Assembly: GCF_037893015.1 (NCBI RefSeq)
Contig: NC_133661.1
Coordinates: forward strand, 187,194,809-187,258,808
Length of the DNA stretch: 64,000 nucleotides
Direction of reading: 5' to 3'
Source of the DNA: Macrotis lagotis
Lineage: Eukaryota
The notes beneath the pieces are model-generated. The model saw only the letters and a program-made list of their open reading frames with translations. It did no database searches and had not been told where the DNA came from. Made by a program: the position numbers and the translations under genes. Numbering within the stretch: the first letter of the stretch is position 1; the number at the start of each line of letters is the position of its first letter. Of this stretch, positions 28,638-55,172 are shown piece by piece.

Positions 28638-28912
28638 AGATCAACTGAATGTGATTAAATACTCAGGGTATGAGTGGTCATCAAAAAAAGTTACAAATAT
28701 TTTTGGCATACCTACTGAGTCAACCAAGCTATCATATCTTCCTCCTCCTGGCTTTTCTGGAGGTAATGCTATTGATGAATCACCTTTAGTGTACTCTCCA
28801 GTAAGCACACGGAACTGGAACATAAGCTTACATCCTTGGTAGCCTTTTCCACAATATTGGGAGGACAGAGAAGCATCCACTGCAAAGTAGATCCCTTGGC
28901 CATACATTCCAT
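28638..28912 (-). CDS. PARP14-like: PARP14-like gene, terminal coding exon (catalytic C-terminus plus stop): N-GMYGQGIYFAVDAS...KIFVTFFDDHSYPEYLITFS*.
   Basis: Acceptor ccttatttttatag| at 28913-28914, with 2 nt completing the codon. The PARP signature Y-G-x-G-x-Y-F-A is present. The C-terminus aligns with human PARP14 AYGKGTYFAVNAN...PSLFVAFYDYQAYPEYLITFRK. Stop codon at 28638-28640. Confidence 0.9.
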
Positions 28913-32854: not shown

Positions 32855-33026
32855 TTTTCCTACAGGTGCTTTTTAGTCCATTTTCAATGATGGATGAGCA
32901 GTTCTGTCTTGGTGTTCCATGAAAGAGGAACTGCTCATTCTGCACTCCTGGAGGATTCTTTTTCTCCATCCAGTTCCTTTTGTATATATAAGAGGTCCAG
33001 AGGTATGGGTTTTGGATCCTTTTTAT
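32855..33026 (-). CDS. PARP14-like: PARP14-like gene, catalytic exon carrying the H-G-T motif: IKRIQNPYLWTSYIYKRNWMEKKNPPGVQNEQFLFHGTPRQNCSSIIENGLKSTCRK.
   Basis: Acceptor cattatttag| (33027-33028). Donor AGGAAAA|GTGAGT (32853-32854). Aligns with human [41 protein letters not shown]. Phase 0 in, +1 out. Confidence 0.85.
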
Positions 33027-33685: not shown

Positions 33686-33822
33686 CTTAAGGATGGTGCT
33701 GTTGTTCATGGAGCACTTGAACTTCTTGGCTACTCTTTCATACTCCATCAGATTTGGTGAGAGTTCCACAGTCTTCACTGGGTCATCATTCATTGGTTCC
33801 CACTGTTGAGGGATACTCATCT
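33686..33822 (-). CDS. PARP14-like: PARP14-like gene, first PARP catalytic-domain exon (137 nt): E-MSIPQQWEPMNDDPVKTVELSPNLMEYERVAKKFKCSMNNSTILK.
   Basis: Acceptor ctttttgtaatag| at 33823-33825. Donor ATCCTTAAG|GTGAAT at 33684-33685. Aligns with human PARP14 [44 protein letters not shown]. The phase links to the WWE exon (+1) and to the next exon (phase 0). Confidence 0.8.
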
Positions 33823-36133: not shown

Positions 36134-36600
36134 TCTATGGTATTATCAGTTACAGTTTTGCTTAATGTTTCGGAAAATGTCCTGGGGGTGGTGTTATTTA
36201 GGTGTTTTAGGGAAAGTGTTCAGATACAATGTATTAGCAAAAATAAAATAAAGGGATTAGAAGGATTGGATAAAGTGCCTTTTGGATTTTCAGTGGACTT
36301 TTATTTATGTTTCGGCTAGTATAAGCATTTGGGAAATTGACTTGCTAGAGCACCCCAGAAAAAAAACAGTGCAGGACAAGGTAACAACCACCAACTCAAA
36401 TTTCCAATTTGTGGAGTTCCATAATATTGTCCAGAATCATACTAACAACTATGTCAATGATCACTTCTCTCACTCCTATTTAAGAGGAATTTATTGAGGA
36501 ATTTATGCATCTGGGAAGGAATGAGAGCTTTTAAAAAGGGACACAGTCAAGAAAACCCTGATTAAGTAAGAAATGAAAATTAAAGGCAGGGAGAACTTAC

Positions 36601-37125
36601 CCCATATGCAGATTTCTCTCTTTATTTGAAAGACTATCTGGGTGTCTGGCACCAAACCTTCCCTCTTCTTCAGGTTGACCTGGGCTCTTCTAGAATCTAG
36701 GATAATTTCAACATTTTCCTCTTCCTTCCTATATGCTGTTTCCAGTTTTAGGTTTGTACTTTTGTCAAAAGGCAAAAGAACTGTGCTCCCAATGTTATAC
36801 TGCCATTGAACCACTGATTTCAGGGCTTCAGCTGCTATATCTGAGTTCTGAGCTTGGATGAGAGTTTGGACAACAGTGGCAGCTTTCTTCACATCTTCCT
36901 GAAAGCCCTGGATTTTTAAGAGATTCCCATGATGATGTAGATTGAGAGGGAAATAGTATCCCTGATCCAAGACCTCTCGAAGACAGTCTTCACTGAAAGT
37001 GATTATTTTATCACCGTTCAATGTTTCACTGTAAAATCCATTCATAAAGTCTTCCAAAACTTCCTGAAATTTGGCTAAACTCACCTCCCTACCCAATACT
37101 TGAACTAGTCCTAGTGGAGAGTCAC
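36601..37125 (-). CDS. PARP14-like: PARP14-like gene, WWE-domain exon (525 nt).
   Basis: Acceptor tctctctgttctcag| (37126-37127). Donor ATATGGG|GTAAGT (36599-36600). TFSEDCLREVLDQGYY..LN and VVQWQYNIGSTVLLPFDKSTNLKLETAYRKEEENVEI..RRAQVNL align with human PARP14 YTSEDECIKDFDEKEYQELN and EFIEWQYNDNN..FNKMTNLKLEDARREKKKTVDV..HYTVNL. The phases are consistent (2+3n+1). Confidence 0.85.
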
Positions 37126-37573
37126 CTGAGAACAGAGAGAAGAGATTTATAATAAGTTAAATACCATAAAATCTTGAAAAGAAAATAAAACCTGACCCAT
37201 TCTAACCCCATGTTCCCTATGAAGAGGCTAGAATAATGGGATATATAAGGAAAGGTTAAAAGAATTGAAATTACTTAGTCTGAAAAAGGCTGAATAATTG
37301 CATTCAGTTTTTGAAAGATTAGCTTAGAAAATATATGTCTATAGAAATATATGTACATATACATATATTTCTATAGAAAAAGGCAATAACAATTTTCTAA
37401 TTTAACTGATAGGGAAAATGAATGGTATTTGAACTTTAGCATATTTAATCAATGGTAATAAAAAGATGAGGTTTAATTTAGAGGAAACTATTACTTCCTT
37501 TTTCACCAATTTCACTAACTGAATTAGTGTATAGTCAGTCATCAAAGGAGAGTTAAAAGATTAGATTTTAGAT

Positions 37574-37579
<6 letters not shown>

Positions 37580-37634
<55 letters not shown>
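37580..37634. repeat. (CT)27 microsatellite.
   Basis: Direct reading. Confidence 0.95.
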
Positions 37635-37638
<4 letters not shown>

Positions 37639-38485
37639 TCTTATAATGACTTTCTAGAAGTATCCATGGACATTGCTTAATACTGTTAATAGCAACCTAC
37701 TTGACTTGTACACCCAAGACAAAATGACTTGTGGAAGTACCAGATTTTACTATAGAAAAAAAACCAAATATCAAATGAGTATATGGAGAACTGTGGATGG
37801 ATGACAATGTTCAGTATTATTTTTTTAATTTTAAGATAGACAAGATAGAATTTCCACTTATTACATACAGAAATTTTTATATACAGAACTACTATATGCA
37901 TGAATTTCCATATACTCATGGAACCTTAGGAATAGACTGAGGAGGGAGTAGTTGAACTATATAACATTTAAGATCTTTTACAAATTTGATCTATGGTGAT
38001 AAAAACATGAAGTTTAATTTAGGGGAAACTATTACTTTGAAGCTCTCTTTTCACCAATTTCACTGGCTAAATTAGTGTATCATCAGTCATCAGAGATTTA
38101 ATTAGAGGCAGTTGGTGAAAAAGAAGACATAGTACAGGACTTGGAGTCAGGAAAATCAGAAATCAAATCCAGCTTCAAATATTAACTAGATTATGACCCT
38201 GTGCAACTCAATTAATCTCAGTTTGTTTCAGCTTCCCAGCCTGTAAACTGGGGACAACAGCACTTAGCTGGCACTTTATGGAATGAATCAAATGAAGTAA
38301 TATTTACAAAAGCTCTTAGTCCATTGTCAGAACTACATAAAGGCCTCTTCCCTAACTGATAGTTATATCTGAGGCAACCAATAACAGTGATCCTCCTCCC
38401 TTTCTTCTCCCCTTTCTCCTTCTACATATTGGTCCCCTCTACAGATTCAGAAAAGAAGTGAACCTTTGCTCTGACAATGCTGAGC

Positions 38486-38603
38486 AATCATAGACTGCTG
38501 CTTAGTGGCTCTCCTGCCATTTTGTGAATAACTGAGAAGAGGATACTTCTCTCTGGAGTATGAATATCTCTAAATGGGTTAATGCCCCCAAATTCCCATG
38601 CAT
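38486..38603 (-). CDS. PARP14-like: Candidate macro-domain exon (D-AWEFGGINPFRDIHTPERSILFSVIHKMAGE...). Its 3' boundary is not resolved.
   Basis: Acceptor tttctttcatttccag| at 38604-38605. The frame is phase-compatible with the upstream 61-nt exon. Pattern A.E.GG..F...........I.S.I.K resembles macro-domain AIPAISSGVFGFP...IVSAIKENF. An in-frame stop near 38487 means the donor lies above it and was not located. Confidence 0.35.
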
Positions 38604-38678
38604 CTGGAAATGAAAGAAAAATAATTCAGCTATTTAATAGGGATCCCAGGGAACAGAACAACATCTCTTCCCCCTTAC

Positions 38679-38739
38679 CAAGAGCAAAATGTTCTTTTCT
38701 GTGTCTCCTGAGAAGCTTCATCAGCTCATGGACAAATGT
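38679..38739 (-). CDS. PARP14-like: Candidate small macro-domain exon (61 nt; TFVHELMKLLRRHRKEHFAL).
   Basis: Strong acceptor (ttattctttctttctgttag|) and donor (|GTAAGGGGG) 61 nt apart. One frame is open. The phase (+1) matches the next candidate exon 75 nt downstream. Weak similarity to the macro-domain helix preceding the SIAxPAIxxG motif. Confidence 0.4.
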
Positions 38740-38814
38740 CTAACAGAAAGAAAGAATAAGAAATCTACTAAATATATCAGCAACACAGGACATTCCCCAG
38801 AAGACTGAAAGACA

Positions 38815-38974
38815 TTTTTTTTAGTTTTGGGTTTTTTTTTGGAAGGCAATGGGCTAAGTGGCTTGTCCAAGGCCACACAGCTAGGTAATTATTAAGTATC
38901 TGAGGCCAGATTGAACTCAGGTACTCCTGACTCCAGGGCTGGTGCTCTATCCACTGTGCAATTTAGCTGCCCCT
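38815..38974 (-). mobile_element. tRNA-derived poly-A SINE.
   Basis: Family consensus, reverse orientation. Confidence 0.8.
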
Positions 38975-39068
38975 GAAAAGATATTTCTTTTGACTTCTCT
39001 AAGGGATCCTAAGTTTCAGACACTTATAAACTTCCATTTCATTTTTTTTGTTTGTTTTTGTTTTTGTT

Positions 39069-39248
39069 TTTTTTTTTTCAGGTTTTTGCAAGGCAAATGG
39101 GGTTAAGTGTCTTGCCCAAGGCCACACAGCTAGGTAATTAAGTGTCTGAGACCAGACTTGAACCCAGTTACTCCTGACTCCAAGGCCGGTGCTTTATCCA
39201 CTACTCCACCTAGCTGCCCCCTCACTATGCCACCTAGTCGCCCCCCCT
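39069..39248 (-). mobile_element. tRNA-derived poly-A SINE with a partial duplication of its head end.
   Basis: ccacctagctgccccctcactatgccacctagtcgccccc. Confidence 0.8.
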
Positions 39249-40563
39249 TCCATTTCATTTTTAAAAATATATTTTCTAATCTAATAAACAAAAAAGAATG
39301 GACTTAAAGATGAAGAAATCAAGGGAAAAAGTTGAAGCAAACACTGACATTTGATCAATGATGAAGTCCAGTTAGTTTAGGACCTTCCTCCCAGAGGGAA
39401 GATGAGGAACAGGGACACAAAATTACTGATTAAATTGTTAATGAACCCATTCAATCCTTAAGTGCTGCTAATCCCTATTTGGTAATAATTGTATGTTTAG
39501 AGGTAACTAGGTTCTACTTACCCCAGATTAGATTATTTGTAGAGTTCTGCTTCTCTAATCTATCTAGCATTTTAAAAACATCATTCCATCCTAACTACCA
39601 TGACATTCAAAATCAGCCTGCACAGTTTTATAGAAGGGTTGGTGGCTCCAGGTTATTTCACTTTTTTTTTCTTTTTGGAACCAGAACCAGAACCTGTAGC
39701 CAGGGCATCATTGACTCAATTGATTTATATATTGTCAATTGTCATGGCCAATAAATTGGCTAATAAACTGTCAATTATCATGGTCAAAAATATTTACTTG
39801 AAATGCATTTGGAGAAACACTAGAATTATTTCCCAGTAAGTTCAAGGGCAAGGCAAAGGTATGCAGTGTTTCCTCCATTATTTGTTATAGAGCTATAAAT
39901 GGTAGCTATAACAATTAAAAAGTAAAATCAAGGGAATCAACAGATAAAGAAGTAAAATTTTTTATGGTAGCAAAAGGATATGATTGTCTAAAGAACTTCA
40001 GTAATTCAAATTCTAAAAATTATTTGAAAAAATAGTTTTAATAAAGTAGCAGGATTTAAAATATACTAACAATAAATCTCATTGCTAATCAGTTGACAAT
40101 GAGACTGTCATCATGCCTTGAAATTCTGGACTAGTCTGATAAAATCAATAAATGACATCTAAGTATGCAAAGAATTAGTATGTAGAAGATAGATGCCAAT
40201 CAGTGTTTACTAAAAAGATAAAAATAAATGGACCAAAAATGTCACAAAAGAAGATAGTGGTTAGATATCAGGAACAATATTTTTATACTTACCACATTTC
40301 AGATTAATATAGAACACAAGGGGGGAGCCCTAATGAACCTCATGAAGTGAGAAAGTGATAGATATAAATCTATGCATAAAAATTATACTCAAATGATGGG
40401 AAAATTGATTCCAAGCACAAATGAGAAAAGTTCTAGGGGAAAAAAAAGAGGATTGTAAAAGTCAAAGAGAACTAAAATGGATCAGTGAGGGTTTTTTCAC
40501 AGTATGTCATCAAGAAGGGCAAGAACTTAAAATCCAGGATATTTTGGCATAATATAGGACTTA

Positions 40564-40735
40564 AGGGCAGCTAGGTGGTGCAGTAGATAAGAACAAAGGC
40601 CCTGGAGTCAGGAGTACCTGAGTTCAAATCTGGCCTCAGACACTTAATAATTACCTAGCTGTGTGGCCTTGGGCAAGCCACTTAACCCCATTTGCCTTGC
40701 AAAATCCTAAAAAAACCAACCAAACAAACAAACAT
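40564..40735 (+). mobile_element. tRNA-derived poly-A SINE.
   Basis: TSD cataatataggactt. Confidence 0.85.
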
Positions 40736-41031
40736 AATATAGGACTTGATCAGAGAAGCAAGTGAACTTTAGGATTTATTGAGTCTAACTTTATTCTCAA
40801 TATTTCAATATTTAAAGTTATTAAACATCAATATTTTTATAATATTTATTTTTAATCAGTCATATCTGACTTTAATGTGCTTCCCCTTATTGTCTTTTGC
40901 AGATGCTGTATTTTTTAGAAATTGAAGATTTGTGGCAACCCTGCAAGATTAATGGCACCAATTTTCCAAAAGCATGTGTTCACATCACATTAATGTGTCA
41001 CATTTTGCTAATTCTCACAAATTCTCACATT

Positions 41032-41034
<3 letters not shown>

Positions 41035-41063
<29 letters not shown>

Positions 41064-41072
41064 TATTATTAT
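41035..41072. repeat. (CAT)n followed by (TAT) microsatellite.
   Basis: Direct reading. Confidence 0.9.
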
Positions 41073-41956
41073 ATCAAATATTGTGATCTGGTATTGATAT
41101 TACTATTGCTTTAGGATGCCACAACCATACCTATCCAAGATGGGCAAACATAACCAATAAATATTTATATGTTCTGACTATTCCATTGATTGCTCCCTGT
41201 CATTTTCCCTCTCCTTGGATCTCCCTATTCCTTGAGACACAACAATATTGAAATCAGGTCAATTAATAACCCTACAATGGCCTCTAAGTGTTCAAGGGAA
41301 AGGAAGAGTTAATCAGTGTGACAAATTTCATTATTATCTTATTTTAAGAAATGAACATAGCCACTACAACCTTTAGCAATACTACCCTGATCAGTCAGCA
41401 GCCATCAGGATCAAGATAAGATCCTCTAATAGGAAAAAGATTATAAATCACTACAGGCCCAGGTGACAGTTAACATTTTTAGGCAATAAAATATTTTTAA
41501 ATTAAGGTATGTATATTTTTTAGACATTATATTATTGCACATTTAATGGACTAGAATGCAGTATAAACATAATATTTATGTAAACAAGGAAACTAAAAAT
41601 TTCATGAAACTTGCTTTACTGGGGTATTTACCTTATTATAGTGCTCTGGAATCAAACCTGCAATATTTCTGAGACATGTTAGTATATGTATACATTTTAT
41701 TAGATTATAAACTCCTTGAGCTGAAAAAGACCAAATTTGAATTTCCTCCATTGTTCAGCACAGTGTTATATGCACTATGTACTTAATAAATTTTTAATGA
41801 ATGAATGAGTAAACTCCCAAAAGAGCTTAAACAAACCAAGGTATCTACTTTAAAGACCCCTAAGAATGTTAGAGGAATTTTTTTTCTAGTCTTAGAATAA
41901 GGGGAACAAAAAAAAAAGATTCCTCAAATCCCCTTTCAGTTCTGTAATTTTATCAA

Positions 41957-44641
41957 GAATTGATGATTCTGGTGGAGCCAAGATGGTGACAAGAGAGCAA
42001 CGTCTCTTAGAAGCTCTCTCATAAAACTTATAAGCTAAGGACTCTAAGTAAACTTTCAAGAGACAGAACCCACAGAGGGACCCAGTGAGGCAGTTCTCCT
42101 ACTCAAGGTAACCTGGAAAAGAACAGAAAGGCTCTGCTCCCCCGGGTCAGAGGGGTGGCCCACCAGAGCAAAAGAAATTCAGCCTCCAGGAGGCAGTCCC
42201 AGGGAGCTGGGAGCCGCGGCTCACAGTAGCGGGGGGAGTTTCCTGAGCTATGCCCTGGGAAGCACCGGGTACAAATTGGGGGAACAGCAGGGGGACCTCT
42301 GCCAGAGTGAGCACATGAAGCCCAGCCCTCAGGGCACACAGCGAACAAGTGGTCTTTCCCCAGCCCAGATCCAGGAACAGAAGCAGGCAGAGCCAGTAAG
42401 CAGGACCCCCAGGGCATGAGCCCATTGAACCTAGCGGAGGGGAGTGAAGAGAGACTGCCCAGCTCTGTCCTCTGCCCCTGGAAAAGGACCCTGGAAAAGG
42501 ACTCTGGGGTTCTGACCACATTCAGATCCTGATCACAGTCTAGGCCCCCCATAGAACAGCAGGGCACCCTCCACCTCAGCCCCATGACAGAGGGGGGCGT
42601 ATATGGTCATTCACAGACCAGGAGGGAGGACAGAGCCTCACACACTGAAACCCTTGTGGGAGTGTCCCAAAAGCTCAGGAAGCACCCCAAAACCAGGCTC
42701 AGACTGGGAAAATGAGCAAGCAGAGAAACAAGAGGAAGACCATTGAGAAATATTTTCCATATGAACCCAAGAAGGATCAAAATACTCAGTCTGAAGATGA
42801 GGAAGCACAAGTTCCTGCATCTAAGGACTCCAAGAAAAACAGAAATTGGGCTCAGGCTATGACAGAGCTCAAAAAAAGACTTTGAAAATCAAATGAGGGA
42901 GTTAGAAGAAAAACTGGGAAAAGAAAGGAGAGAGATGCAGGAAAAACATGAAAATGAAGTCAGCAGCCTAGTCAAGGAAATCCAAAAAAATGCTGAAGAA
43001 AATAACATGCTAAAAACCAGCTTAGGTCAAATGGATAAAACAGTTCAAAAAGTTATTGAGGAGAAGAATGCTTTAAAAAGCAAAATTGGCCAGATGGAAA
43101 AAGAGATAAGAAAACTCTCTGAGGAGAACAAATTCTTCAGACAAAGAACAGAACTCAGGGAGACTGATGAATTTACAAGAAATCAGGAATCAATACTTCA
43201 AAACCAAAAAAATGAAAAATTAAAAGAAAATGTGAAATATCTCATTGAAAAAACAACTGATATGGAAAACAGACTTAGGAAAGATAATTTAAAAATTATT
43301 AGAATACCTGAAAGTCATGATCAGGAAAAGAGCCTTGACATCATTTTCAAAGAATTGCTACAGGAAAATTGCCCTGATAGTCTAGAAGCAGAGGGCAAAA
43401 TAGAAATGGAGAGAATCTACCGATTGCCCTGAGAAAGAGATCCCAAAAAACCAACCCCTAGGAATATTATAGCCAAGTTCCAGAACTCCCAAGTCAAAGA
43501 GAAAATATTACAAGCAGCCAGAAGAACATAGTTCAAATACTGTGGAGCTGCAGTCAAGATCACACAGGACTTAGCAGCAACTACATTGGAAGCTCATAGG
43601 GCTTGGAATATAATACACCAGAAGGCAAAAGAGCTTAGAATGAAGCCAAGAATCAATTACCCAGCAAAACTGAATGTCCTCTTCCAGGAAAAAAGATGGA
43701 CTTTCAATGAACCAGGGGAATTTCAAATGTTCCTGTTGGAATGGCTAGAGCTGAACAGAAGGTTTGATCTTCAGATATAGGACTCAGGTGAAGCATAGAG
43801 ATTGGAGGAGAAGGGGAAAATATGAGGGACTTAACGATGATGAACTGCATGTATTCCTGCATAGAAAAATGACACTGATAATACTCATATGAACCTTCTC
43901 AGTTAATAGAGCAGGTAGAGGGAGCTTTTATAGTTGAAGCACAGAAGAAAGCTGAATTTGAAGATAAAATATGGTGTAAAAATGTAGTCAATAGAAAAAA
44001 AAGGGAAATGTGATGGGAGAAAGAAAAAGGAGAGGAGGGAATAGGCCAAGATATCTCATATGATAAGTTTTTTCTTTAGTACAATGAGCTATTGCAATGA
44101 TATGGAAGGGGGGAAGGCAAGGGAGAATGAGGGAATCTTCACTCTCATCAGAGGTGGCTAGGAGAGGAAACAGCATATATACTCAATGGGGTATAGACAT
44201 CTAGAGTAAGAAGAAAAGGGGGGACAGGTGGAAGGGGGGGGATGTGAGTGATGGAGGAAAGGATGGACCCTGGGGGGAGAGTGGTCAGATATAACACATT
44301 TTCCTTTTTACTTCTAGCAAGGGGCTGGGATTGGATGGCCTGTCCAGGACCATAGGGCCAGGTGGATGCTGGGCCTAAGGGGTGGTAGGGGGCTCAGGGC
44401 CTCTTGGCCCCAGGACCAGGGATCTGTCTGCTGTGCCACTCATCTACCCTACAGTAGAGTCAGAGTGAAAGTAGAGAGAAAATATAGTATACATGGTAGT
44501 GGAGAAATATGAAGGGAGGGAGTTGTGATCAGCAATGGCAACAGTGGAAAAATATGGAATCAACTTTTGCAATGGACTTACCATAAAGAATGTGATCTAT
44601 CCGCGACAGAGTTGTTGGTGTTGGAACAAAGACTGAAGCAC

Positions 44642-44687
<46 letters not shown>

Positions 44688-45204
44688 TGGGGGGGTGCAG
44701 GGCAAATGGGGCTGGGTGGCCTGCTCGGAGCTACATAGTAGGGTGATCTTTGGGTGTCTGAGGCTGAATTCGGACCCAGGTGCTCCTGGCTCAAGGGCCA
44801 ATGCTCTGTCCACCACCCAGCCACCCCTACTACCATTATTACTATTTTTATTTTATTTTGGGTCTTTTTTTTCTTTTTTTTTTTTTGGTTTTTGCAGGGA
44901 ATTGGGGTTGGGGTGGCTTGCATGTCACACAGCTGGGTGATTGTTGGGTGTATGAGGCCAGATATGGGCTCGGGTTCTCCTGGATACAGGACTGGGGCTC
45001 CGTCCATTGCGCCATCTGGCCATACCTACAATTATTACTATTATTTTTTATTTTAATTTTTTTTCTCCCCTTTACTTTATCGCTCAAGCGAGTCTATATT
45101 TTGTGGGGAGAGGGGGTATTCTGTTTACTCTTAAACAAGAATATTTTATTAATGTATAAAAAAACATTATTTGTATAAAAAGAGAATAAATAAATATAAA
45201 AAAA
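41957..45204 (+). mobile_element. Half-L1 (HAL1-like) composite element, copy 2.
   Basis: Composition in order: L1 5' end (ggtggagccaagatggtgac...), a GC-rich 5'UTR, ORF1 (42893-43432, 179 aa, coiled-coil ORF1p-like, terminated), a ~1 kb non-ORF2 tail, (TTA)n, two SINE-like modules, and an A-rich tail. Flanked by the TSD aagaattgatgattct at 41940-41955 and 45207-45223. Confidence 0.7.
44645..44688. repeat. (TTA)n microsatellite internal to HAL1 copy 2. Its homologue in copy 1 is (TTA)n(TAG)n at 31846-31896.
   Basis: Direct reading. Confidence 0.9.
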
Positions 45205-45223
45205 AAGAATTGCTGATTCTTGC

Positions 45224-45390
45224 GGGCGGCTAGGTAGCATAGTGGATAAAGCACTGGCTTGGAGTCAGGAGTACCTGGGTTCAAATCCAGACTCAGACAC
45301 TTAATAATTACCTAGCTGTGTGGCTTTGGGCAAGCCACTTAATCCCATTTGCCTTACAAAAACCTAAAAAACAAGAAACAACAACAACAA
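45224..45390 (+). mobile_element. tRNA-derived poly-A SINE inserted about 15 nt into the intron after the donor of the 45413-46796 exon.
   Basis: TSD gaattg(c/a)tgattctt at 45209-45223 and 45396-45410. This is the same target as the TSD of the adjacent HAL1-like element. Confidence 0.85.
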
Positions 45391-45412
45391 AAAAGAATTG
45401 ATGATTCTTACC

Positions 45413-46796
45413 AATTCAGTTTTCTCCTTACAGGCTGAGACCTCAGAGGACAAAGAATTTGTAGTTTCTGGCACTTGAATCTTCACCAAACATTGGAGTT
45501 CTTTAGCAAAAGTGAAAAGAACTGTGGCTCCAATCCCAGAAAGGTATTCTTGTACTCCTCTGTGCCATACAGGGATGCTTCTCACAGTCAATAAATCTAG
45601 ATCAGCTTGAACAACTCCTTTGGCCTCTTTTACATGTCTTCTCAGTCCTTTTAGTTTCAAGGTTAAAGTAGAATGACTCGTCTGAATCCAAATATTCACC
45701 TTTAAGTCTCCCCAGTTCATTATCTGAAACAGATTTTCTTTTGCTTCAGCCAGTTCTGGTCGAGGGGAAATAATTCTGTCTTCAGTAATTGAATAACTCA
45801 TCAAATATTCCCTAATATTGGTCTCTGCCTCAGTTACTTCAACCCTAGTGCCCACTATGACCACTGAAGTCAAGATATCTTGCAGTGATTTGACACTATA
45901 AAAAGTGACTTTCTTTTGACTTCTTAGTGCTATCAGTAGAGCTTCCCATTCCAGGCCATTGACTGCCCACTGGACCTCTTCCCCTATATCAACCTTCTTC
46001 TCATAAACTAAACTCTTCAGTAAATTTTCTGCTTGAACCAGTTCTCCAAAGTCAAGCCCCCAAATCCCAACTCCATCAGAAATGTTCAACACTGCTGAAA
46101 TATCTCGAGCAAGGAAAAAATTTTCATTAAAGAGTTCTTCCTGGAGGCTTTGGATAAATTGCACTTGGAATGGGGAAAGTGAGACTGGCCAGTTCTTAAA
46201 ACCAACCAGCAGACTATAAAACTGCTTCTCCACCTCAAGTACATCTTTTCGGCGCCCCTGAAAAGTGATCATACCAAAAGGACCTTCCTCCAAGGTTATA
46301 GAAACTGGAGTGTGAGGAAAAATAAACATTTTGTTTATTGTGTTTTTGACCACTGTGTATCTAGGCAGATGGAGAATAGGATGTTCCACACACACTGGCT
46401 TTTCATTGAAAGTCATTTCCTGAACATATTGTAAAAACATCTTCACTGCCTCAGTTGGCCCTACAAAGCGTGGACCTTCATATTCTCGTATGGTTGCAAA
46501 AGACTTCACTAACAATGGTTGTTTTTTTAAAACATTCAGAATATCTGAGTTGTTCTCATAGTGAACAGCATATCTCTTCTTAATTTTCTGAAAAGTATCC
46601 TCCACAGCTTTCTCCCAGTTGGATGGGTCTAGTTGTTCCCCTTCTGCTAAAAATTTAAGCACTCCCAAAGAAGCACAAGTTTGGAATACACAGTCTATCT
46701 TCCTTAAGTCTTCTTCAAACTCTTGGAAAACAATTGGGGAGTCATTAAGGTACTGGACAAAAGCTGGGTCTTCTTTCTGACAGAGACTAATGACTT
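45413..46796 (-). CDS. PARP14-like: PARP14-like gene, second large coding exon (KH-like / pre-macro region).
   Basis: 434-codon open frame. Acceptor ttttcctttctcctag| lies at 46797-46800. Donor AAAACTGAATTG|GTAAGA lies at 45411-45412. PFQVQFIQSLQEELF...FLARDISAVL and ITFQGRRKDVLEVEKQ regions align with human PARP14 SPEIFQFLQQVNWKEF...FIAQKILAL and LCLKGPSADVYKAKCEIQ. The ORF-track tail LLLLFLVF is read-through into an intronic SINE poly-A. Confidence 0.75.
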
Positions 46797-49450: not shown

Positions 49451-50547
49451 CCCTTTAGTTTTTCTTTCTTTTGCCTTACTAACTAGTAAGGATAGAAGTT
49501 GAAAAGTAAAGCATGAAGTATTTCATAACTGCAATAGGTACATAGATTTCTGTGACCTTTAGTCTAAGGCCCTTGGAAGTGTGAGGAAGTAAGTTAAGAA
49601 GTACCATATTAATAAACATAATAGATTAAATGAAAATTTTGAAGACAGGAAATGTTTGTGAATGAGAAGAAGCATGAATTCTCTGGAAAACTGAATAATG
49701 TCAACTCTATGAGATTCCCACTTTACTTACCAGGAGGGGTTCTGAAAACTTCAGTCACCTGAAAGGGAAAGAAAGAAGAAATCTTACATATTTAAAACAA
49801 ATAAAGATCAAGCAAACAAAAGAAACTATGCCACTTAATAAACATTGAAGCATTGCATCTCTCTTCTAGAAGGCTCTAAAAGTCTCTGGATTTGACTGTG
49901 TAAATAAATATAAATAAATAAATACTTAAATACTTTTATATTTGTCTTCTCAGGTACCCTCGGCTCTTAGACATTAGATCTACAATTACAAATCAACAAT
50001 CTGAACAGGTGACAATACTATGCACTTAATGTCATTGACTTTTATTTTTATTATTGTTTCTGTGGGGGAAGACTCATATTTAAAACCTCAGTTGACTCTG
50101 GTCCATCTCCAATCAGCAATCTACTGAACTTTGAGAGAGGATAGCCATCTGTCCTCAAACTCCCTTGCTTAGATTCCACCAGTAGAGCTCTATTAATTTG
50201 CATTAACCAGATTTTTCCATTAAAATGCAAATCTGCCTAAGAGAAGTAATACACTCATCTAGGCAATTAAGTTTTTCACACTTACAGTGTGAATTTATTT
50301 TACCAGGTTGAATCACTCCAAAAAGCTAAGTGAGAGTAACATTGCCCTTGGGGAAAGGAAAGTTGGCACAGAAAGGGGGGGGGTCTGACTTTGGAGCAAA
50401 GGAACAATTCAGAAAGCAAAAACTAGCGATACTGGGGCTCCTGATAATAAGCAATTGAGGACCCTGGGACTAAAACAGTGGTGGTATCAGAACTGTACAA
50501 GACCCAGAAAAGAAAGATTTAAACTTTTGTCTAAAGTATCTCTATCA

Positions 50548-50727: not shown

Positions 50728-51678
50728 TATCCATGATGGTTGGTATTGGATTCACTGAAACTTTACCTTCTGAGGATTGGTTGCTCTTAAGGGCTGTACT
50801 ATCTGTACTAGTTTCATCCATGTATTTGGTTTTTGTTTTATGAAGTTATTGATCTCTTCTAACATAATGTGCAAGGGATTGGAATTCCCAGGAGTCTCCA
50901 GGTCTAACATGGGAAAGGAAATGGATTCCAGAAAAGAACCAAGGAAATTCTTCAAGCAGTTCCAGATCACCTGCTGAATGACCTGTTGAAATATGTAACA
51001 ATCATGATATTTAAAGTACTTATAAATATAATTACAACAATTTATAACTCTAGTTAAAATGCAAGAATATGTAGCCTGTCTGTCTCCATAAAAATGTCTG
51101 CTCTTTGGTGGGAAGCAACAGAAGCTGGGGCAAAGGTTTATATGGGAAGCAGGATCAAGCATATGGGATGTACTTTGGCAATCGTACCCATGTTGCTGAT
51201 TCAGTATATACTTAAAAGGAAGACACAAGGAACTGTTAGAGGAAGTAGGAAGTTGCCAGAGTTGTATATGTGTCAGGAAAAGGACCATAAAGCACTTCTG
51301 CTCCTGAAGTTCAAGACATTTTTGTATGTTACCCCATTCCTTCAATCAATATAAATTTACCTACAAAATGTTTAGGGTACAATGGTGGATACTATAGATA
51401 CAAAAACAGAAAAGACAAAATTCTGAACCTCATGGAGAGGCTAACCTGCTTATTGTCTAGTTGGTTAGATGAAATGTGCACATGTAAAAAATTAACAATC
51501 TAAGATAAATATAGCAATGGACATCAAATCCATGAGAAGTTGTTTCTCCTATGTAGATTAGATCAAAGTAAACAGAAGGGAAGGAAAGACTGATAATGGG
51601 CAGGAAGTTCCCACTAACTGTACTTCATTAGATGATGTTTAGAAAAAACAAACATTATTCAAAATAGTAAAAAAAAAG

Positions 51679-51683
51679 CACAC

Positions 51684-51744
<61 letters not shown>

Positions 51745-51745
51745 G
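51679..51745. repeat. (CA)n(TA)n compound microsatellite.
   Basis: Direct reading. Confidence 0.95.
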
Positions 51746-51941
51746 TATACATATTTGAAGCAATAGGGAAGGAACAAGTAGATAGAGGGGAAGTTCTGTC
51801 TTAATTATTTAGTTCATCATTTTATACAATTTTGGAGACACTGGGAAACTGGAAATAGCCCTGCATTAAGAGGGATTTAAGAGAGTCCCTTCCAGTAAGA
51901 TCTCACCCATCTGACTCCTCTATAAAAGGCAAATAAACAGG

Positions 51942-52105
51942 GGGTGGCTAGGTGGCATAGTGGATAAAGCACCGGCCCTGGAGTCAGGAGTACCTGGATT
52001 CAAATCCATTGTCAGATACTTAATAATTACCTAGCTGTGTGGCCTTGGGCAAGCCACTTAACCCTGTTTGCCTTACAAAACAAAAAAACCTAAAAAATAA
52101 AAGGT
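51942..52105 (+). mobile_element. tRNA-derived poly-A SINE.
   Basis: Flanks aaaaggcaaataaac and aaaaggtagataaac. Confidence 0.8.
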
Positions 52106-53444
52106 AGATAAACTGAAGGGCACTCCAAGGTGCTCAGACAACTAAGGGTCTTAAGTGAAAATGTGAGATCAATTTATAAACATGAGTGGCCCCTAGACTA
52201 CCAGTCCTACTTTCCACAGCCATTATCCATTTCTATCCATAGGAAAACAAATATCTATGGGACAGGTAAGTCAATCTAATTAAAGTAGTAAGATCTCCCA
52301 AGGAAAAGACAGGCTTTGATATGTGTCGGACAAATCAGGTCACCACTACCACCTTCCCTCAGACTCCAAAGAAGATAACCACTGGCCTAAACCCAAGAGC
52401 CATAGGAATAGTTGTACTCCAGATCATTGTTTCTATCACAGGCTCCACAGCCATCATGGAAAGGAGCAATTGTTGTTAAATTCCTTATCATTGTTACCAA
52501 CACAAATTGCTGACCAACCTCCACTGATAGGCAGATAAACCTAAGAGTCCCAGTAGAGGCAGCACACACTATACCCTGGTTTTGCTTCTAGCCCAGCCCC
52601 TAAAGTCATCATCCTGGGGATTCTCTGCAGATGCAACTTGGCAGCTACTTTTACAGCTACTACAACCTGGCCTCAGCACCCACAAGAATTAAAGGTGTCA
52701 AGAAGAAAGTTCTCACCTTCAAAGCTCTTGGCATTGTAAAATAATTAAACATCAGAAACAAAGATGATTTTATCAGTAGAAATGACAATAAAAATGCATT
52801 GCCATCTGCTTTGCTGCTGCACCCCAAGGACAATGGGACCTTTCCACCTGACTTGAAGCTGAACATCCGAAATATGAAGTCTCCTCCTTTATAATGTGAG
52901 TTCCTTGAGAACAAGGACTGTTTTGCTTTTTCTTTTAGTAACAATGCTTTAAACATAGCAAAAGCTTAATAAAATGTCTTTTAATTCATTCATATTCAAA
53001 CAAACATTAGGCCAAACCTGGTGCTGTTGAACTAATCCTGTATCTAGGCAGATGATATATAGGACCTGGCAATGCAGACCAGGCAAGCTAGAAGCAGGAA
53101 TGGTAATGATGTTTCCATGGAGGAGATCCTGGGGATCAAGAATGTTCTCCAATTCTTCCTGGACCTGGGTAGACATCTCCTCGACCCAACTGCTATTGTG
53201 GGACCCCAGAATCCAAGGGAAAACCACCACATCAGTCTGTGGACAGAAGAAAAGCCCAGGAAGAAAAAATAATGAAAATAATTCATAAAAATTAAGATAA
53301 ACATCCTCTTTAAAAGAAAATTTCCATAAGTTAATAAAATTCTAAATCATTTTCCCTCAGTCTTGAGGTTACCAGAGACTTCCATTCCTCTTTCCCTTAG
53401 CCTAAATGGGCATGCTTTGTATTATAAGAAATCCTCATAGAGGG

Positions 53445-53594
53445 GCGGCTAGGTGGTGCAGTGGATAAAGCACTGGCCCTGGAGTCAGGAGTACCTGGAT
53501 TCAAATCCGATCTCAGACACTTAATAATTACCTAGCTGTGTGGCCTTGGGGAAGGCACTTAAGCCTGTTTGCCTTGCAAAAACCTAAAAAAAAT
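53445..53594 (+). mobile_element. tRNA-derived poly-A SINE.
   Basis: TSD aaatcctcatag. Confidence 0.85.
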
Positions 53595-53894
53595 CCTCAT
53601 AGAAAGTCTATAGTATTCTTTTGTCACCTGTTACATATCTCATAGTCTTTGCTGACTAGATATTATTTCTAGTGTCTACTTTGTTTTGTTCTATTCTCAA
53701 AGGAGATCGTACATACTCTGAATCCCATACGGTATTTAAGAACTGTTAGATTTCTCTTTATCCATGGTTCTTTTAGCTTTTCCCAGATCCCCATTACCCC
53801 CACTCATCATCCCTATGGATCAGTCATGGACTCTTTCCAAGGCTGCATTTGGAATATTGACCTAAGGGAAACCAGACACAATAATGACTACTTG

Positions 53895-54049
53895 GGGCAG
53901 CTACGGTGGTGCAGTGGATAGAGCACCAGCCCTGGAGTCAAGAGTACCTGAGTTCAAATCCAGCCTCAGACATTTAATAATTACCTAGCTGTGTGGCCTT
54001 GGGCAAGCCACTTAGCCCCATTTGCCTTGCAAAAACCTATATAAAAAAA
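53895..54049 (+). mobile_element. tRNA-derived poly-A SINE inserted 13 nt into the intron after the donor of the 5' large exon.
   Basis: TSD aatgactactt at 53883-53893 and 54050-54060. Donor gtaagtag preserved. Confidence 0.85.
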
Positions 54050-54062
54050 AATGACTACTTAC

Positions 54063-55172
54063 TTTCTGAGTAATGATGTTTCCAACCACCACCTGCGTTG
54101 TTACAGCTTCCCAGGAGCTCATGATGTAGGGAAGGAGGACATGATGATCCTTTCTCTGGGACCACCACCTGCAACATTCCACCTCACATTCAGCTATAAA
54201 GTCATTATCATTTCCTGCTAGAGTAAGATTCCTTAGGCGGCTCCCTTTGGACTGCAGGCTCTTAAAGTCCTTGACTCCTACAATGATCCCTTTTGCTAGG
54301 GCTGCTGGACCAGTGGAATGAATCACCAATGAAGCACTTTTCTCCTGGGTTGCAACTTGAAGGGCCAAAGTGATAGCACTGGCAATCAGTTCCTGGTTTT
54401 CATTCATAGCAGCTACATCCCTTCTGGAGCTATGCCCAGTCCAAGAGGATGACAGCATCACTTGTAGGAGCACCTGGGGAATACCTCGCTCATTCAGGAT
54501 ATGCTGCCTCTGCACTTTTACCCTGGGAACTGTTTTGACCTCATTTTGTCTGTCCAGTGGCCTACAGGTAAGACTCATGGTAACTGAGGTTCGGAATGTA
54601 GAAGCTTCTCCTTTCCAGAGAGAGAGACTAAGGCCATCTCCTACCTGGAAGAAACCACTCATCCATCTTTGCTCTTGAATCAGGCCAGACCATGGGTTCA
54701 TTTTCACAGTGGAACAAAGAAGGATCATCAGTTTACTGATGGCAATCTTGGCATTAGAGACCACTTCATGGGGACCAAAGAAGGAAATGATTGCTGAGTT
54801 CTGGTTTAGTTGCCAACCAATTTTCACCTTCCAGAGAGACAAATCCAATGTTCCCTGTAGGACCTTCCATAAATGGAGCTCCTCAGGGGTCACAAAGAGA
54901 GTTTCATTTGTTCTTGGAGATCTCTGAAGGTAATCTAGCACCAACCAGTTTTTACTCTTCCTACTACATGCTGAGGAGTCTCTTGCTGGTCTCCCTGAGA
55001 CTCTTATGGAAGGATCACAAGAGGGTTTGATTATTTCCAAGTTGAATCTAGACTTCTTTAGATCTTTATCATCTGAGACACTTTCGTAACAGGTTCTTAG
55101 ATGAGGACCATTGTAGGTCACAGATCCTGACATGTTTGAACCAACCTTCTTACTTCTACCTCCAAAATTCAA
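54063..55172 (-). CDS. PARP14-like: PARP14-like gene, 5' large coding exon (N-terminal region). In-frame ATG at 55131-55133 (MSGSVTYNG...) is a possible start. Exon ends ...VVGNIITQK with donor GTAAGT at 54062.
   Basis: 1.1 kb open frame on the minus strand ending at a consensus donor (cagaaa|gtaagtag). KNWLVLDYLQRSPRTNETLFVTPEELHLWKVL aligns with the human PARP14 N-terminus ([24 protein letters not shown]...FFYPEDVRQKVL). FIAECEVECCRWWSQ aligns with EINDEMRRCHCELTWSQ. Human sequence is recalled from memory. The 5' boundary and true start are unresolved. Confidence 0.6.

Follow-up and report, generated by a model that had tools for sequence, protein, structure and literature searches.

A marsupial PARP14-like gene with degenerate macro domains at its start and a single 61-nt exon between its KH array and WWE exon

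Introduction

PARP14-family genes are fast-evolving and have been linked to antiviral defence (PMC13224862). In canonical PARP14, three macro domains are inserted in a split KH domain, right upstream of KH8-WWE (PMC10450202). In PARP9 (BAL1), two macro domains lie N-terminal to the KH domain(s) and the ADP-ribosyltransferase (ART) domain (PMC10450202), and the protein is catalytically inactive (PMC13224862).

We analyzed a 64,000-nt stretch of the Macrotis lagotis genome (assembly GCF_037893015.1, contig NC_133661.1, positions 187,194,809 to 187,258,808), called the window here; all coordinates are positions in it. A sequence-only reading had recognized a relative of PARP14 on the minus strand, correctly as it turned out. 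It had also expected, from the architecture of PARP14, about 570 aa of macro domains between a large exon and the WWE exon, in the interval 37126-45412. That architecture does not apply to this locus, which holds a different paralogue with its macro domains in exons 1-3 (55.1-50.8 kb).

Results

We reconstructed a minus-strand gene of 10 coding exons, all with GT-AG splice sites, extending from 55133 to 28641. The exons (1071/219/216/28/1385/61/525/137/172/272 nt) form one open frame of 4086 nt (1361 aa). The predicted product is a PARP14-like mono-ADP-ribosyltransferase, a relative of PARP14 and not canonical PARP14.

The closest proteins were RefSeq entries of the sugar glider, Petaurus breviceps papuanus, annotated as 'uncharacterized protein' (XP_068953799-803; our P0053, P0010 and P0052) and encoded at JAMXIF010000002.1:7714141-7737571 (locus L001). 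XP_068953799 (P0053) is collinear with the window exon for exon, with 77.6% protein identity. The glider exons are 1071/225/219/28/1388/61/528/137/172/272 nt long, and the two genes share all ten exons, including those of 28 and 61 nt, the domain order and the splice sites of the 61-nt exon. Glider introns are shorter (2.7 kb before the 61-nt exon, compared with 6.7 kb in Macrotis), which fits the repeat-rich Macrotis intron. Between the two species dS is 0.28 and dN/dS 0.42 overall, with 0.78 in exon 2 and 0.09-0.5 in the catalytic exons. Judged by collinear full-length similarity and shared exon lengths and phases, the gene is an orthologue of XP_068953799.

Exons 1 to 4 lie upstream of the large exon. 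Exon 1 (54063-55133) begins with the ATG at 55133, and its 357 codons cover a disordered N-terminal region, a KH-like domain and the first of the degenerate macro-like domains; it was found by tblastn with residues 1-363 of glider P0053 (E 1e-162). The second macro-like domain is divided between exon 2 (53018-53236; 73 codons; tblastn E 8e-29), which carries its N-side half between the acceptor ttcttctgtccacag/ and the donor CACCAG/gtttgg, and exon 3 (50767-50982; 72 codons; tblastn E 2e-34), which carries its C-side half. Micro-exon 4 (49731-49758) has only 28 nt, encoding VTEVFRTPP plus 1 nt, and brings exons 3 and 5 back in frame. We located it via the glider micro-exon GTGACTGAAGACTTCAGGACCCCTCTCC, in a region 84% identical over 148 nt, and it is bounded by ag and gtaagt in both species.

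Large exon 5 (45412-46796; 1385 nt) matches glider P0010 with a phmmer E of 5.6e-208 and ends in the phase-0 donor GAATTG/gtaagaat. It encodes an array of KH-like domains, putatively of type I, with sub-threshold Pfam matches to KH_PARP14_4, _6 and _8. Intron 5 (38740-45411), the 61-nt exon 6 (called exon A below) and intron 6 (37126-38678) separate it from exon 7 (36601-37125), which has a phase-1 acceptor (tctctctgttctcag/GTGACT) and a phase-1 donor. Exon 7 encodes what is probably the C-terminal half of a split KH domain, then KH8 with its long helix, then the WWE, and matches Pfam WWE_1 (E 5.7e-8) and, below threshold, KH_PARP14_8. The junction sequences and the gene model confirm the limits proposed previously for these two exons, 45412 and 37125.

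A mono-ART catalytic domain (PARP, PF00644) follows the PARP14-type WWE. It starts in exon 8 (33686-33822) and continues through exon 9 (32855-33026; Pfam PARP 6e-6), with the FLFHGT histidine motif, and exon 10 (28641-28912; Pfam PARP 1.9e-6), with YGQGIYFA, PKIFVTF and the TGA stop at 28643-28641. The domain aligned over its full length with PARP15 (E 1.8e-40) and PARP14 (E 9e-36). Its catalytic triad is H-Y-I, with the H and Y motifs intact and Ile in place of the Leu of PARP14 (H-Y-L), and by analogy with PARP14 the enzyme is probably an active mono-ADP-ribosyl transferase. PARP9, whose triad is Q-Y-T, is short and lacks both a WWE and a long KH array, whereas the Macrotis gene has a WWE and intact triad motifs. 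From N- to C-terminus, the predicted protein has a disordered region and a KH-like domain followed by the two degenerate macro domains (exons 1-3), then the KH array (exon 5), a linker (exon 6), KH8 with the WWE (exon 7) and finally the ART domain (exons 8-10).

We found that exon A (38679-38739) is conserved in the glider. It lies between the acceptor ctttctttctgttag/ACATTT and the donor CTCTTG/gtaagggg, is entered in phase 0 and left in phase 1, and encodes TFVHELMKLLRRHRKEHFAL plus 1 nt, so that it joins the large exon to the KH8/WWE exon in frame. Its glider counterpart (L001:14897-14957) also has 61 nt and conserved splice sites; the DNA is 85% identical, and 15 of the 20 residues are shared. 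The corresponding peptide, TSAHELLKVLRRHRNEHFAL, is present in all three glider RefSeq isoforms, which read ...CREEIEW-TSAHELLKVLRRHRNEHFAL-G-DSPLGLVQ. Exon A is unique within the window, and its dN/dS is 0.30, on 20 codons only. Given this conservation and the computational RefSeq models of a relative, 38739-38679 is a genuine coding exon, as its strong splice signals had indicated to the sequence-only reading. From the frame and the orthologue, splicing would run from the end of exon 5 (45412, phase 0) through the 20 codons and 1 base of exon A to exon 7 (from 37125, phase 1), with the predicted junction ...ACKEKTEL/TFVHELMKLLRRHRKEHFAL/G/DSPLGLVQVLG...

A structural model of this junction in the orthologue (mean pLDDT 82) has folded KH-like units, with the element order strand-helix-helix-strand-strand-helix, on either side of a low-confidence segment (residues 116-155). 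The homologue of the exon-A peptide (residues 135-154) is a basic, isolated helix within this linker of ~40 residues. The linker would separate the two halves of the split KH domain, the site of the three macro domains of PARP14. Taking the split KH from the order of DSSP elements, it appears to occupy the PARP14 macro-insertion site.

Splice signals by themselves are not above chance in the interval. A simple scan found five open pseudo-exons that combine a good acceptor with a GTRAG donor; of these, 39280-39226 and exon A were phase-compatible with the flanking exons. Exon A stands above chance because it is conserved in the sugar glider orthologue.

A second mini-exon had been proposed 75 nt beyond exon A (across 38678-38604), at 38603 to ~38486 (pseudo-exon B). 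The coordinates, the acceptor-like signal (tttctttcatttccag/ATGCAT) and the continuity of frame (...HFAL-D-AWEFGGINPF...) were all borne out; a coding function was not. Pseudo-exon B has an in-frame TGA at 38490-38488, and the only GT sites ahead of it are TCA/GTTATT, in the wrong phase, and GCA/GTCTAT, which is very weak. Although the acceptor-like site is conserved in the glider (tttttctttcatYtccag), the glider frame there reads D-M-stop, closing at codon 3. The sequence at 38578-38479 is 76% identical to glider, the intron baseline (78% in a global alignment of intron 6), and pseudo-exon B is missing from all three glider isoforms. We therefore rejected it as a coding exon. On these comparisons, it is intronic sequence carrying an acceptor-like site by chance. 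AWEFGGINPF was likewise rejected as a counterpart of the SIAxPAIxxGxxG macro loop, since FAL-D-AWEFGGINPF arises by reading on from exon A into the intron. Identity to glider is 86% in the 100 nt that follow exon A, compared with the intron mean of 78%; with this and the conserved acceptor-like site, the region might have some regulatory or alternative use.

We found no macro domain in the interval. The Macro profile (PF01661), whose use on translated frames had been suggested, gave no hit in an hmmscan of three complete minus-strand frames (37000-45500, E up to 10), and no other relevant Pfam domain was found in those frames. Searching all open segments of at least 25 aa in the interval by phmmer against a PDB set that includes PARP14, PARP9 and PARP15 macro structures returned low-complexity matches only. 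The weak macro resemblance noted in the two mini-exons has no support in either search. Two genuine PARP14s, P0047 and P0050, in which Pfam gives two or three Macro matches apiece, and PARP15-like proteins, used as tblastn queries on both strands, matched KH, WWE and catalytic exons only. This tblastn search also gave one noise match inside the interval, on the opposite strand (E 9.4). Exon A and the two introns together span 37126-45411, and 48% of this sequence is found again at other places in the window, in up to ~30 copies; intron 5 contains microsatellites.

The orthologous glider protein has the exon-A peptide (20 residues) and nothing more between the large-exon and KH8/WWE segments, indicating that there are no further exons among the repeats. 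Our results are most consistent with an interval made up of two repeat-rich introns (6672 and 1553 nt), with no coding sequence detected in the longer, around one constitutive 61-nt coding exon, and we regard this structure as very probable.

The macro domains are upstream. Open minus-strand segments of at least 30 aa at 46.8-64 kb gave no Pfam hits, RRM included. A profile built from exons 1-3 with their orthologues matched 3VFQ (PARP14 macro 1-2) in two stretches (E 4.7e-6), and all 19 of its PDB hits were macro domains. Profile positions 328-464, which bear on exon 2, matched PARP14 macro 2. A Foldseek search with an N-terminal model, made for the glider protein and not the spliced Macrotis sequence (8 sequences; mean pLDDT 59.6, low confidence), matched 3VFQ at E 4e-14 over 392 columns. 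Residues 77-140 of this model have the DSSP order strand-helix-helix-strand-strand-helix, which fits a KH fold. The second macro-like domain also matched PARP9 macro 2 in sequence and fold. Based on the profile and fold matches, exons 1-3 (55133-50767) encode two degenerate macro domains.

Exon 3 contains, at ~50.9 kb, SISFPMLDLETPGNSNP, a degenerate counterpart of the SIAFPAIGTG loop ('lkSiafPaigtgnlg' in the 3VFQ alignment). By eye, in the orthologue and 3VFQ alignments, the ADP-ribose-contact motifs (the Asn/Asp + GGG loop and G-[VIA]-[YF]-G) are replaced, for example by VTMSLTC and LDLETPGNSNP. With these motifs apparently lost, the macro-like domains probably neither bind ADP-ribose nor hydrolyse it any longer.

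Homologues of the large exon, 23-38% identical and annotated as 'uncharacterized protein LOC...' or 'PARP14-like', were found in Crotalus, Crocodylus, Gavialis, Hemicordylus, Gekko, Geotrypetes, turtles, lungfish, gar, bichir and shark. Matches range from shark and gar up to reptiles and marsupials, and none of 42 hits was eutherian. These proteins also share the catalytic signature KNPPG...(LF/LY)HGT, CRK.G.YGQG.YFA and GGGRYDS. The gecko, snake, lizard, crocodile and caecilian proteins have a short linker between the KH array and KH8/WWE, and at the exon-A position this linker is variable both in length and in sequence; the exon-A peptide itself appears to be absent from squamates. In the segment from the KH array to KH8/WWE, no Macro match appeared in the gecko protein or in any of the five reptile and caecilian proteins that were run through Pfam; their sole Macro signal was N-terminal and below threshold, in the caecilian. 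The Crotalus protein (1723 aa) differs in having a duplicated KH-array block.

Discussion

The Macrotis gene shares with PARP14 (human Q460N5; frog/fish P0050 and P0047) a putative type-I KH array, the long helix of KH8 and the PARP14-type WWE (PMC10450202). Its mono-ART domain is closest to those of PARP14 and PARP15, and its macro domains are related to PARP14 macro 1-2. In contrast to PARP14, it has two degenerate macro domains, not three, and these are N-terminal, as in PARP9, and not inside split KH7. At the presumed insertion site there is only the ~40-residue linker, with a single 61-nt exon between exons 5 and 7. Large-exon identity to PARP14 is just 21-26%. Genuine PARP14 proteins score RRM_PARP14_1, _2 and _3, whereas the Macrotis gene has no RRM; the glider orthologue, which starts at the exon-1 ATG, gave no RRM hit in Pfam.

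Could macro exons for ~570 aa still be present in the interval, strongly diverged or hidden among SINE/L1 insertions, with the mini-exons as fragments of them? The position would be plausible for PARP14 itself, with its three macro domains in the split KH before KH8-WWE (PMC10450202), and the interval is repeat-rich. However, the Pfam, PDB and tblastn searches gave no macro signal there, tests of this type do pick up the diverged macro domains in exons 1-3 when run with a profile, the orthologue has just 20 residues between the flanking exons, and the 1361-aa frame is complete without additional exons. We find this scarcely credible. The macro-domain exons are not hidden in the 8.3-kb interval; the gene's diverged macro domains come from its first exons, further upstream. 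The earlier suggestion that the macro modules were diverged or partially lost in this copy comes closest, for the interval, in the word "lost"; its appeal to exons concealed by SINE and HAL1 insertions fails against the glider protein. A decaying PARP14 duplicate, a pseudogene with its macro exons deleted and the mini-exon as a functionless leftover, might account for the elevated dN/dS, the degenerate macro motifs and the weak KH scores in Pfam. It is highly improbable for a frame of 1361 codons intact over ten exons with only canonical splice sites, a dN/dS well under 1 and lower still in parts of the catalytic domain, and intact H-Y-I motifs. The architecture also persists in proteins of marsupials, crocodilians, squamates and caecilians, with remoter large-exon homologues in lungfish, gar and shark, which argues for an old, maintained paralogue and not a recent decaying copy.

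Pseudo-exon B might instead be a real alternative exon, poison or terminal, that would give a truncated protein without the WWE and catalytic domain or a transcript bound for decay. Its strong acceptor-like site is kept in the glider, the sequence just past exon A is better conserved than the intron as a whole, and an open frame of 38 codons follows in Macrotis. Yet the frame is not conserved, the body of pseudo-exon B diverges at the baseline rate, other bins of the intron reach 84-87% identity without being exons, and there is neither a credible donor before the stop nor a glider isoform that uses it. We consider an alternative exon very unlikely, and prefer to read pseudo-exon B as intronic.

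For annotation, these results mean that macro exons are not missing from the locus: the exon chain is defined, exon A should be kept and pseudo-exon B dropped. A canonical PARP14 template forced on the locus would mislead. The vertebrate macro-PARP paralogues among which the gene belongs mostly carry the database label 'uncharacterized protein', and the domain order of the gene is unlike those of human PARP9, PARP14 and PARP15. An extra paralogue is unsurprising because duplications are frequent in the PARP14 family; given the fast evolution of these genes and their link to antiviral defence, one maintained in marsupials and reptiles should be of moderate interest to PARP specialists. Tentatively, and with more doubt than confidence, we suggest that the gene is the marsupial member of an old, uncharacterised vertebrate macro-PARP paralogue that joins a pair of degenerate macro domains at the N-terminus to a KH array of PARP14 type, a WWE and an ART domain that looks active, and whose split KH with its ~40-residue linker is either a pre-insertion state or a deletion scar. 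If true, this would be relevant to the way in which partial duplications built PARP9, PARP14 and PARP15.

A ten-exon PARP14-like gene on the minus strand

We found that the window carries a PARP14-like gene on its minus strand. Open frames at 45364-46668 and 36503-37096 (-) gave weak Pfam matches to PARP14 KH families. A PARP14-type WWE domain was clear in the same pair of frames (Pfam WWE_1, E 5.7e-8), and open segments downstream of the WWE frame matched the PARP catalytic domain in Pfam. Given the KH, WWE and PARP catalytic matches, the sequence-only reading was correct to treat the gene as a relative of PARP14. Junction sequences likewise bore out its end for the large exon (45412) and its start for the WWE exon (37125). 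The G+C content of the window is 34-44%, except for one bin at 28%, and SINE copies are abundant throughout.

Ten GT-AG exons join into a single open frame of 4086 nt (1361 aa). On the minus strand these are exon 1 (55133-54063), exon 2 (53236-53018), exon 3 (50982-50767), exon 4 (49758-49731), the large exon 5 (46796-45412), exon 6, which we call exon A (38739-38679), the KH8/WWE exon 7 (37125-36601), exon 8 (33822-33686), exon 9 (33026-32855) and exon 10 (28912-28641). Exon 4 is a 28-nt micro-exon, GTGACTGAAGTTTTCAGAACCCCTCCTG, flanked by cag and gtaagt and conserved in the sugar glider (Petaurus breviceps papuanus). It removes an apparent frameshift of the large exon relative to exon 3. A large-exon acceptor at 46776, chosen to dodge that frameshift, was therefore wrong, and the acceptor is at 46796. 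The 386-aa ORF at 54012-55172 (-) corresponds to coding exon 1; its weak PDB match to NXF1/TAP (E 0.09), which had suggested a retrocopy, is spurious. An alternative donor, CCT/GTAAGG at 45430-45433 (-), would end the large exon at 45432, 20 nt before the donor of our gene model. Direct splicing from 45432 to 37125 keeps the frame and skips exon A; since the orthologue has a 45412-type donor and exon A, we discarded it as the principal form.

Over its whole length, the spliced C-terminus aligns with the catalytic domains of PARP15 (E 1.8e-40) and PARP14 (E 9e-36), and FLFHGT and GIYFA are kept. The third triad position is Ile, in contrast to Leu in PARP14 and PARP15. By PARP numbering, we take the triad to be H-Y-I. 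An H-Y-I triad is typical of mono-ADP-ribosyl transferases.

The sugar-glider orthologue

An exhaustive phmmer search of representative proteins with the large exon matched P0010, a 1365-aa sugar-glider protein (XP_068953802) labelled "uncharacterized protein" (E 5.6e-208, 78% identity). A word-indexed protein search with the same exon gave no match at E <= 1e-10; that index evidently misses close relatives. A second glider isoform, P0053, was collinear with the window by tblastn. We derived the exact glider exon chain from the fetched locus, and its exon lengths and phases agree with those of our gene model. The two proteins are 77.6% identical, with dS of 0.28 and dN/dS of 0.42; dN/dS is lowest in catalytic exon 9 (0.09) and is 0.30 in exon A.

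Exon A is coding and pseudo-exon B is intronic

Two mini-exons had been proposed between the large exon and the WWE exon: exon A and, 75 nt downstream, a second at 38603-~38486 (-), here called pseudo-exon B. Exon A is 61 nt long, with acceptor ctttctttctgttag/ and donor CTCTTG/gtaagggg, and both sites are the same in the aligned glider DNA. Each of the three glider isoforms has the sequence ...CREEIEW-TSAHELLKVLRRHRNEHFAL-G-DSPLGLVQVLG..., the exon-A homologue being joined directly to the KH8/WWE exon. Window and glider share 15 of the 20 residues of the exon-A peptide.

The acceptor-like site that opens pseudo-exon B, tttccag/ at 38604/38603, is strong, and the read-through quoted for the pair, FAL-D-AWEFGGINPF, was reproduced across the junction from exon A to 38603. 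The frame is closed, however, by a TGA at 38490-38488, and the only GT sites ahead of this stop are TCA/GTTATT, in the wrong phase, and GCA/GTCTAT, a very poor donor. The acceptor-like site is conserved in the glider, yet the frame there reads D-M-stop. The body of pseudo-exon B is 76% identical to the glider, and intron 6 (38678-37126) is 78% identical overall. Identity is 86% in the 100 nt after exon A, a level that other intron bins also reach. None of the three glider isoforms contains pseudo-exon B. There is a small residual chance that it serves as an unproductive alternative exon. Based on the shared splice sites of exon A, and on the frame, identity and isoform absence of pseudo-exon B, we conclude that exon A is coding and constitutive and pseudo-exon B intronic. 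Of the proposed pair, then, 38739-38679 is real and 38603-~38486 is not an exon.

Splice-like signals by themselves are not rare in this region. A simple scan of the interval from 37126 to 45412 found five open candidates, of which exon A and 39280-39226 (-; 55 nt) fit the phases of the exons on either side. The latter, with a good acceptor and with GTGAG as its donor, was rejected, having no counterpart in the orthologous protein. It adjoins a SINE.

Repeats are frequent here. One SINE family, whose core resembles MIR (...GGCTTGCCCAAGGCCACACAGCTAGG...), has about 30 copies in the window, on both strands, including those at 38805-38986, 39031-39222, 40549-40740, 44865-45397 and many other sites. 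One copy sits directly against the large exon at its donor side, and a second is found ~70 nt upstream of exon A. Three perfect microsatellites are intronic: (TC)28 at 37579-37634, (TCA)10 at 41033-41063 and (TTA)15 at 44644-44687. A 179-aa coiled-coil ORF at 42893-43432 (+) ends ...RKDNLKIIRIPES...; it looks like an L1/HAL1 ORF1 remnant, an identity that found no confirmation in Pfam or in a PDB sequence search.

Macro-fold domains lie upstream of the KH array

The sequence-only reading had offered macro-domain exons hidden in 37126-45412 as one alternative, and our searches found none there. With stops masked, the three full minus-strand frames of 37000-45500 gave no Macro match in hmmscan against Pfam at E up to 10. 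In phmmer against the PDB, where human PARP14, PARP9 and PARP15 are represented by macro domains, open segments of at least 25 aa gave only Arg/Glu low-complexity matches. Tblastn with Macro-bearing PARP15-like proteins and with canonical fish and frog PARP14 proteins (P0047 and P0050) matched only the large, KH8/WWE and catalytic exons. P0047 and P0050 both score RRM1-3, KH1-6, Macro, KH8 and PARP in Pfam, and P0050 additionally WWE_1. The plus strand of the interval was covered by tblastn alone, the Pfam scan being of the minus strand.

Only a fold search and a profile of orthologues run against the PDB detected the N-terminal domains; single-sequence Pfam searches gave no match for exon 1 or for open segments over exons 2 and 3. 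We aligned the N-terminal 520 residues (exons 1-4) with five orthologues and used the alignment as a profile. It matched the human PARP14 macro 1-2 structure 3VFQ in two stretches (E 4.7e-6), and all 19 of its PDB matches were macro domains (PARP14, PARP9, PARP15, macroH2A and MacroD-type hydrolases). For the glider N-terminus, an AlphaFold model with window exons 1-3 among its alignment rows had a mean pLDDT of 59.6 (70-90 in the domain cores). Foldseek matched this model to 3VFQ (E 4e-14 over 392 columns), then to macroH2A and PARP9 macro 2. Because both the profile and the model match 3VFQ, we conclude that exons 1-3 (50767-55133, -) encode two macro-fold domains upstream of the KH array. 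A KH-like domain is also encoded there. In the alignments, the ADP-ribose-contact motifs of both macro-fold domains look degenerate.

Exon A encodes part of a short linker

We modelled the part of the glider protein that runs from its final KH units to WWE (mean pLDDT 82). The exon-A homologue (residues 135-154) falls within the sole low-confidence stretch (116-155), with an isolated helix predicted at 137-149. In the model, strand-helix-helix-strand borders the linker on one side and strand-helix borders it on the other; we interpret these flanks as the two parts of a split type-I KH domain. Such a split KH domain is where PARP14 and PARP9 carry their macro domains; a long-helix KH domain comes next, and PARP14 then has WWE (PMC10450202). 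The expectation of macro domains before the WWE exon was thus right in position for PARP14, because its macro domains sit in the split KH ahead of the long-helix KH and WWE. In the PARP14-like paralogue, by contrast, this point is occupied by no more than a short and variable linker. The exon-A peptide appears to be missing from squamate homologues; the crocodile homologue may have a related peptide.

Relatives and significance

Large-exon homologues, named "uncharacterized protein" or "PARP14-like", were found in rattlesnakes, crocodilians, a lizard, a gecko, turtles, a caecilian, lungfish, gar, bichir, sturgeon and a shark. No eutherian was among the matches whose source was looked up, which were all but about 25 of the 42 in the representative search; absence of the paralogue from eutherians is weakly suggested. 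In the homologue from Crotalus adamanteus (P0011, 1723 aa), two separate stretches match the large exon, suggesting internal duplication of its KH-array block. A 300-aa partial relative from MetaClust (P0001, 77% identity) reads ...FNIKQMSIPQHW and is without the REICIWE residues of the WWE-exon end (36601-36625, -), suggesting that its species uses another donor site or has an alternative isoform.

PARP9 and PARP15 are partial duplicates of PARP14, and PARP14-like duplications are frequent (reviews, PMC13224862). We found nothing in the literature specific to the PARP14-like paralogue, and nothing relevant on PARP14 in marsupials or reptiles. Exon A and the gene model are already present as automated predictions in a related species, so for annotation the result is ordinary. 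The paralogue is modestly curious for its architecture.
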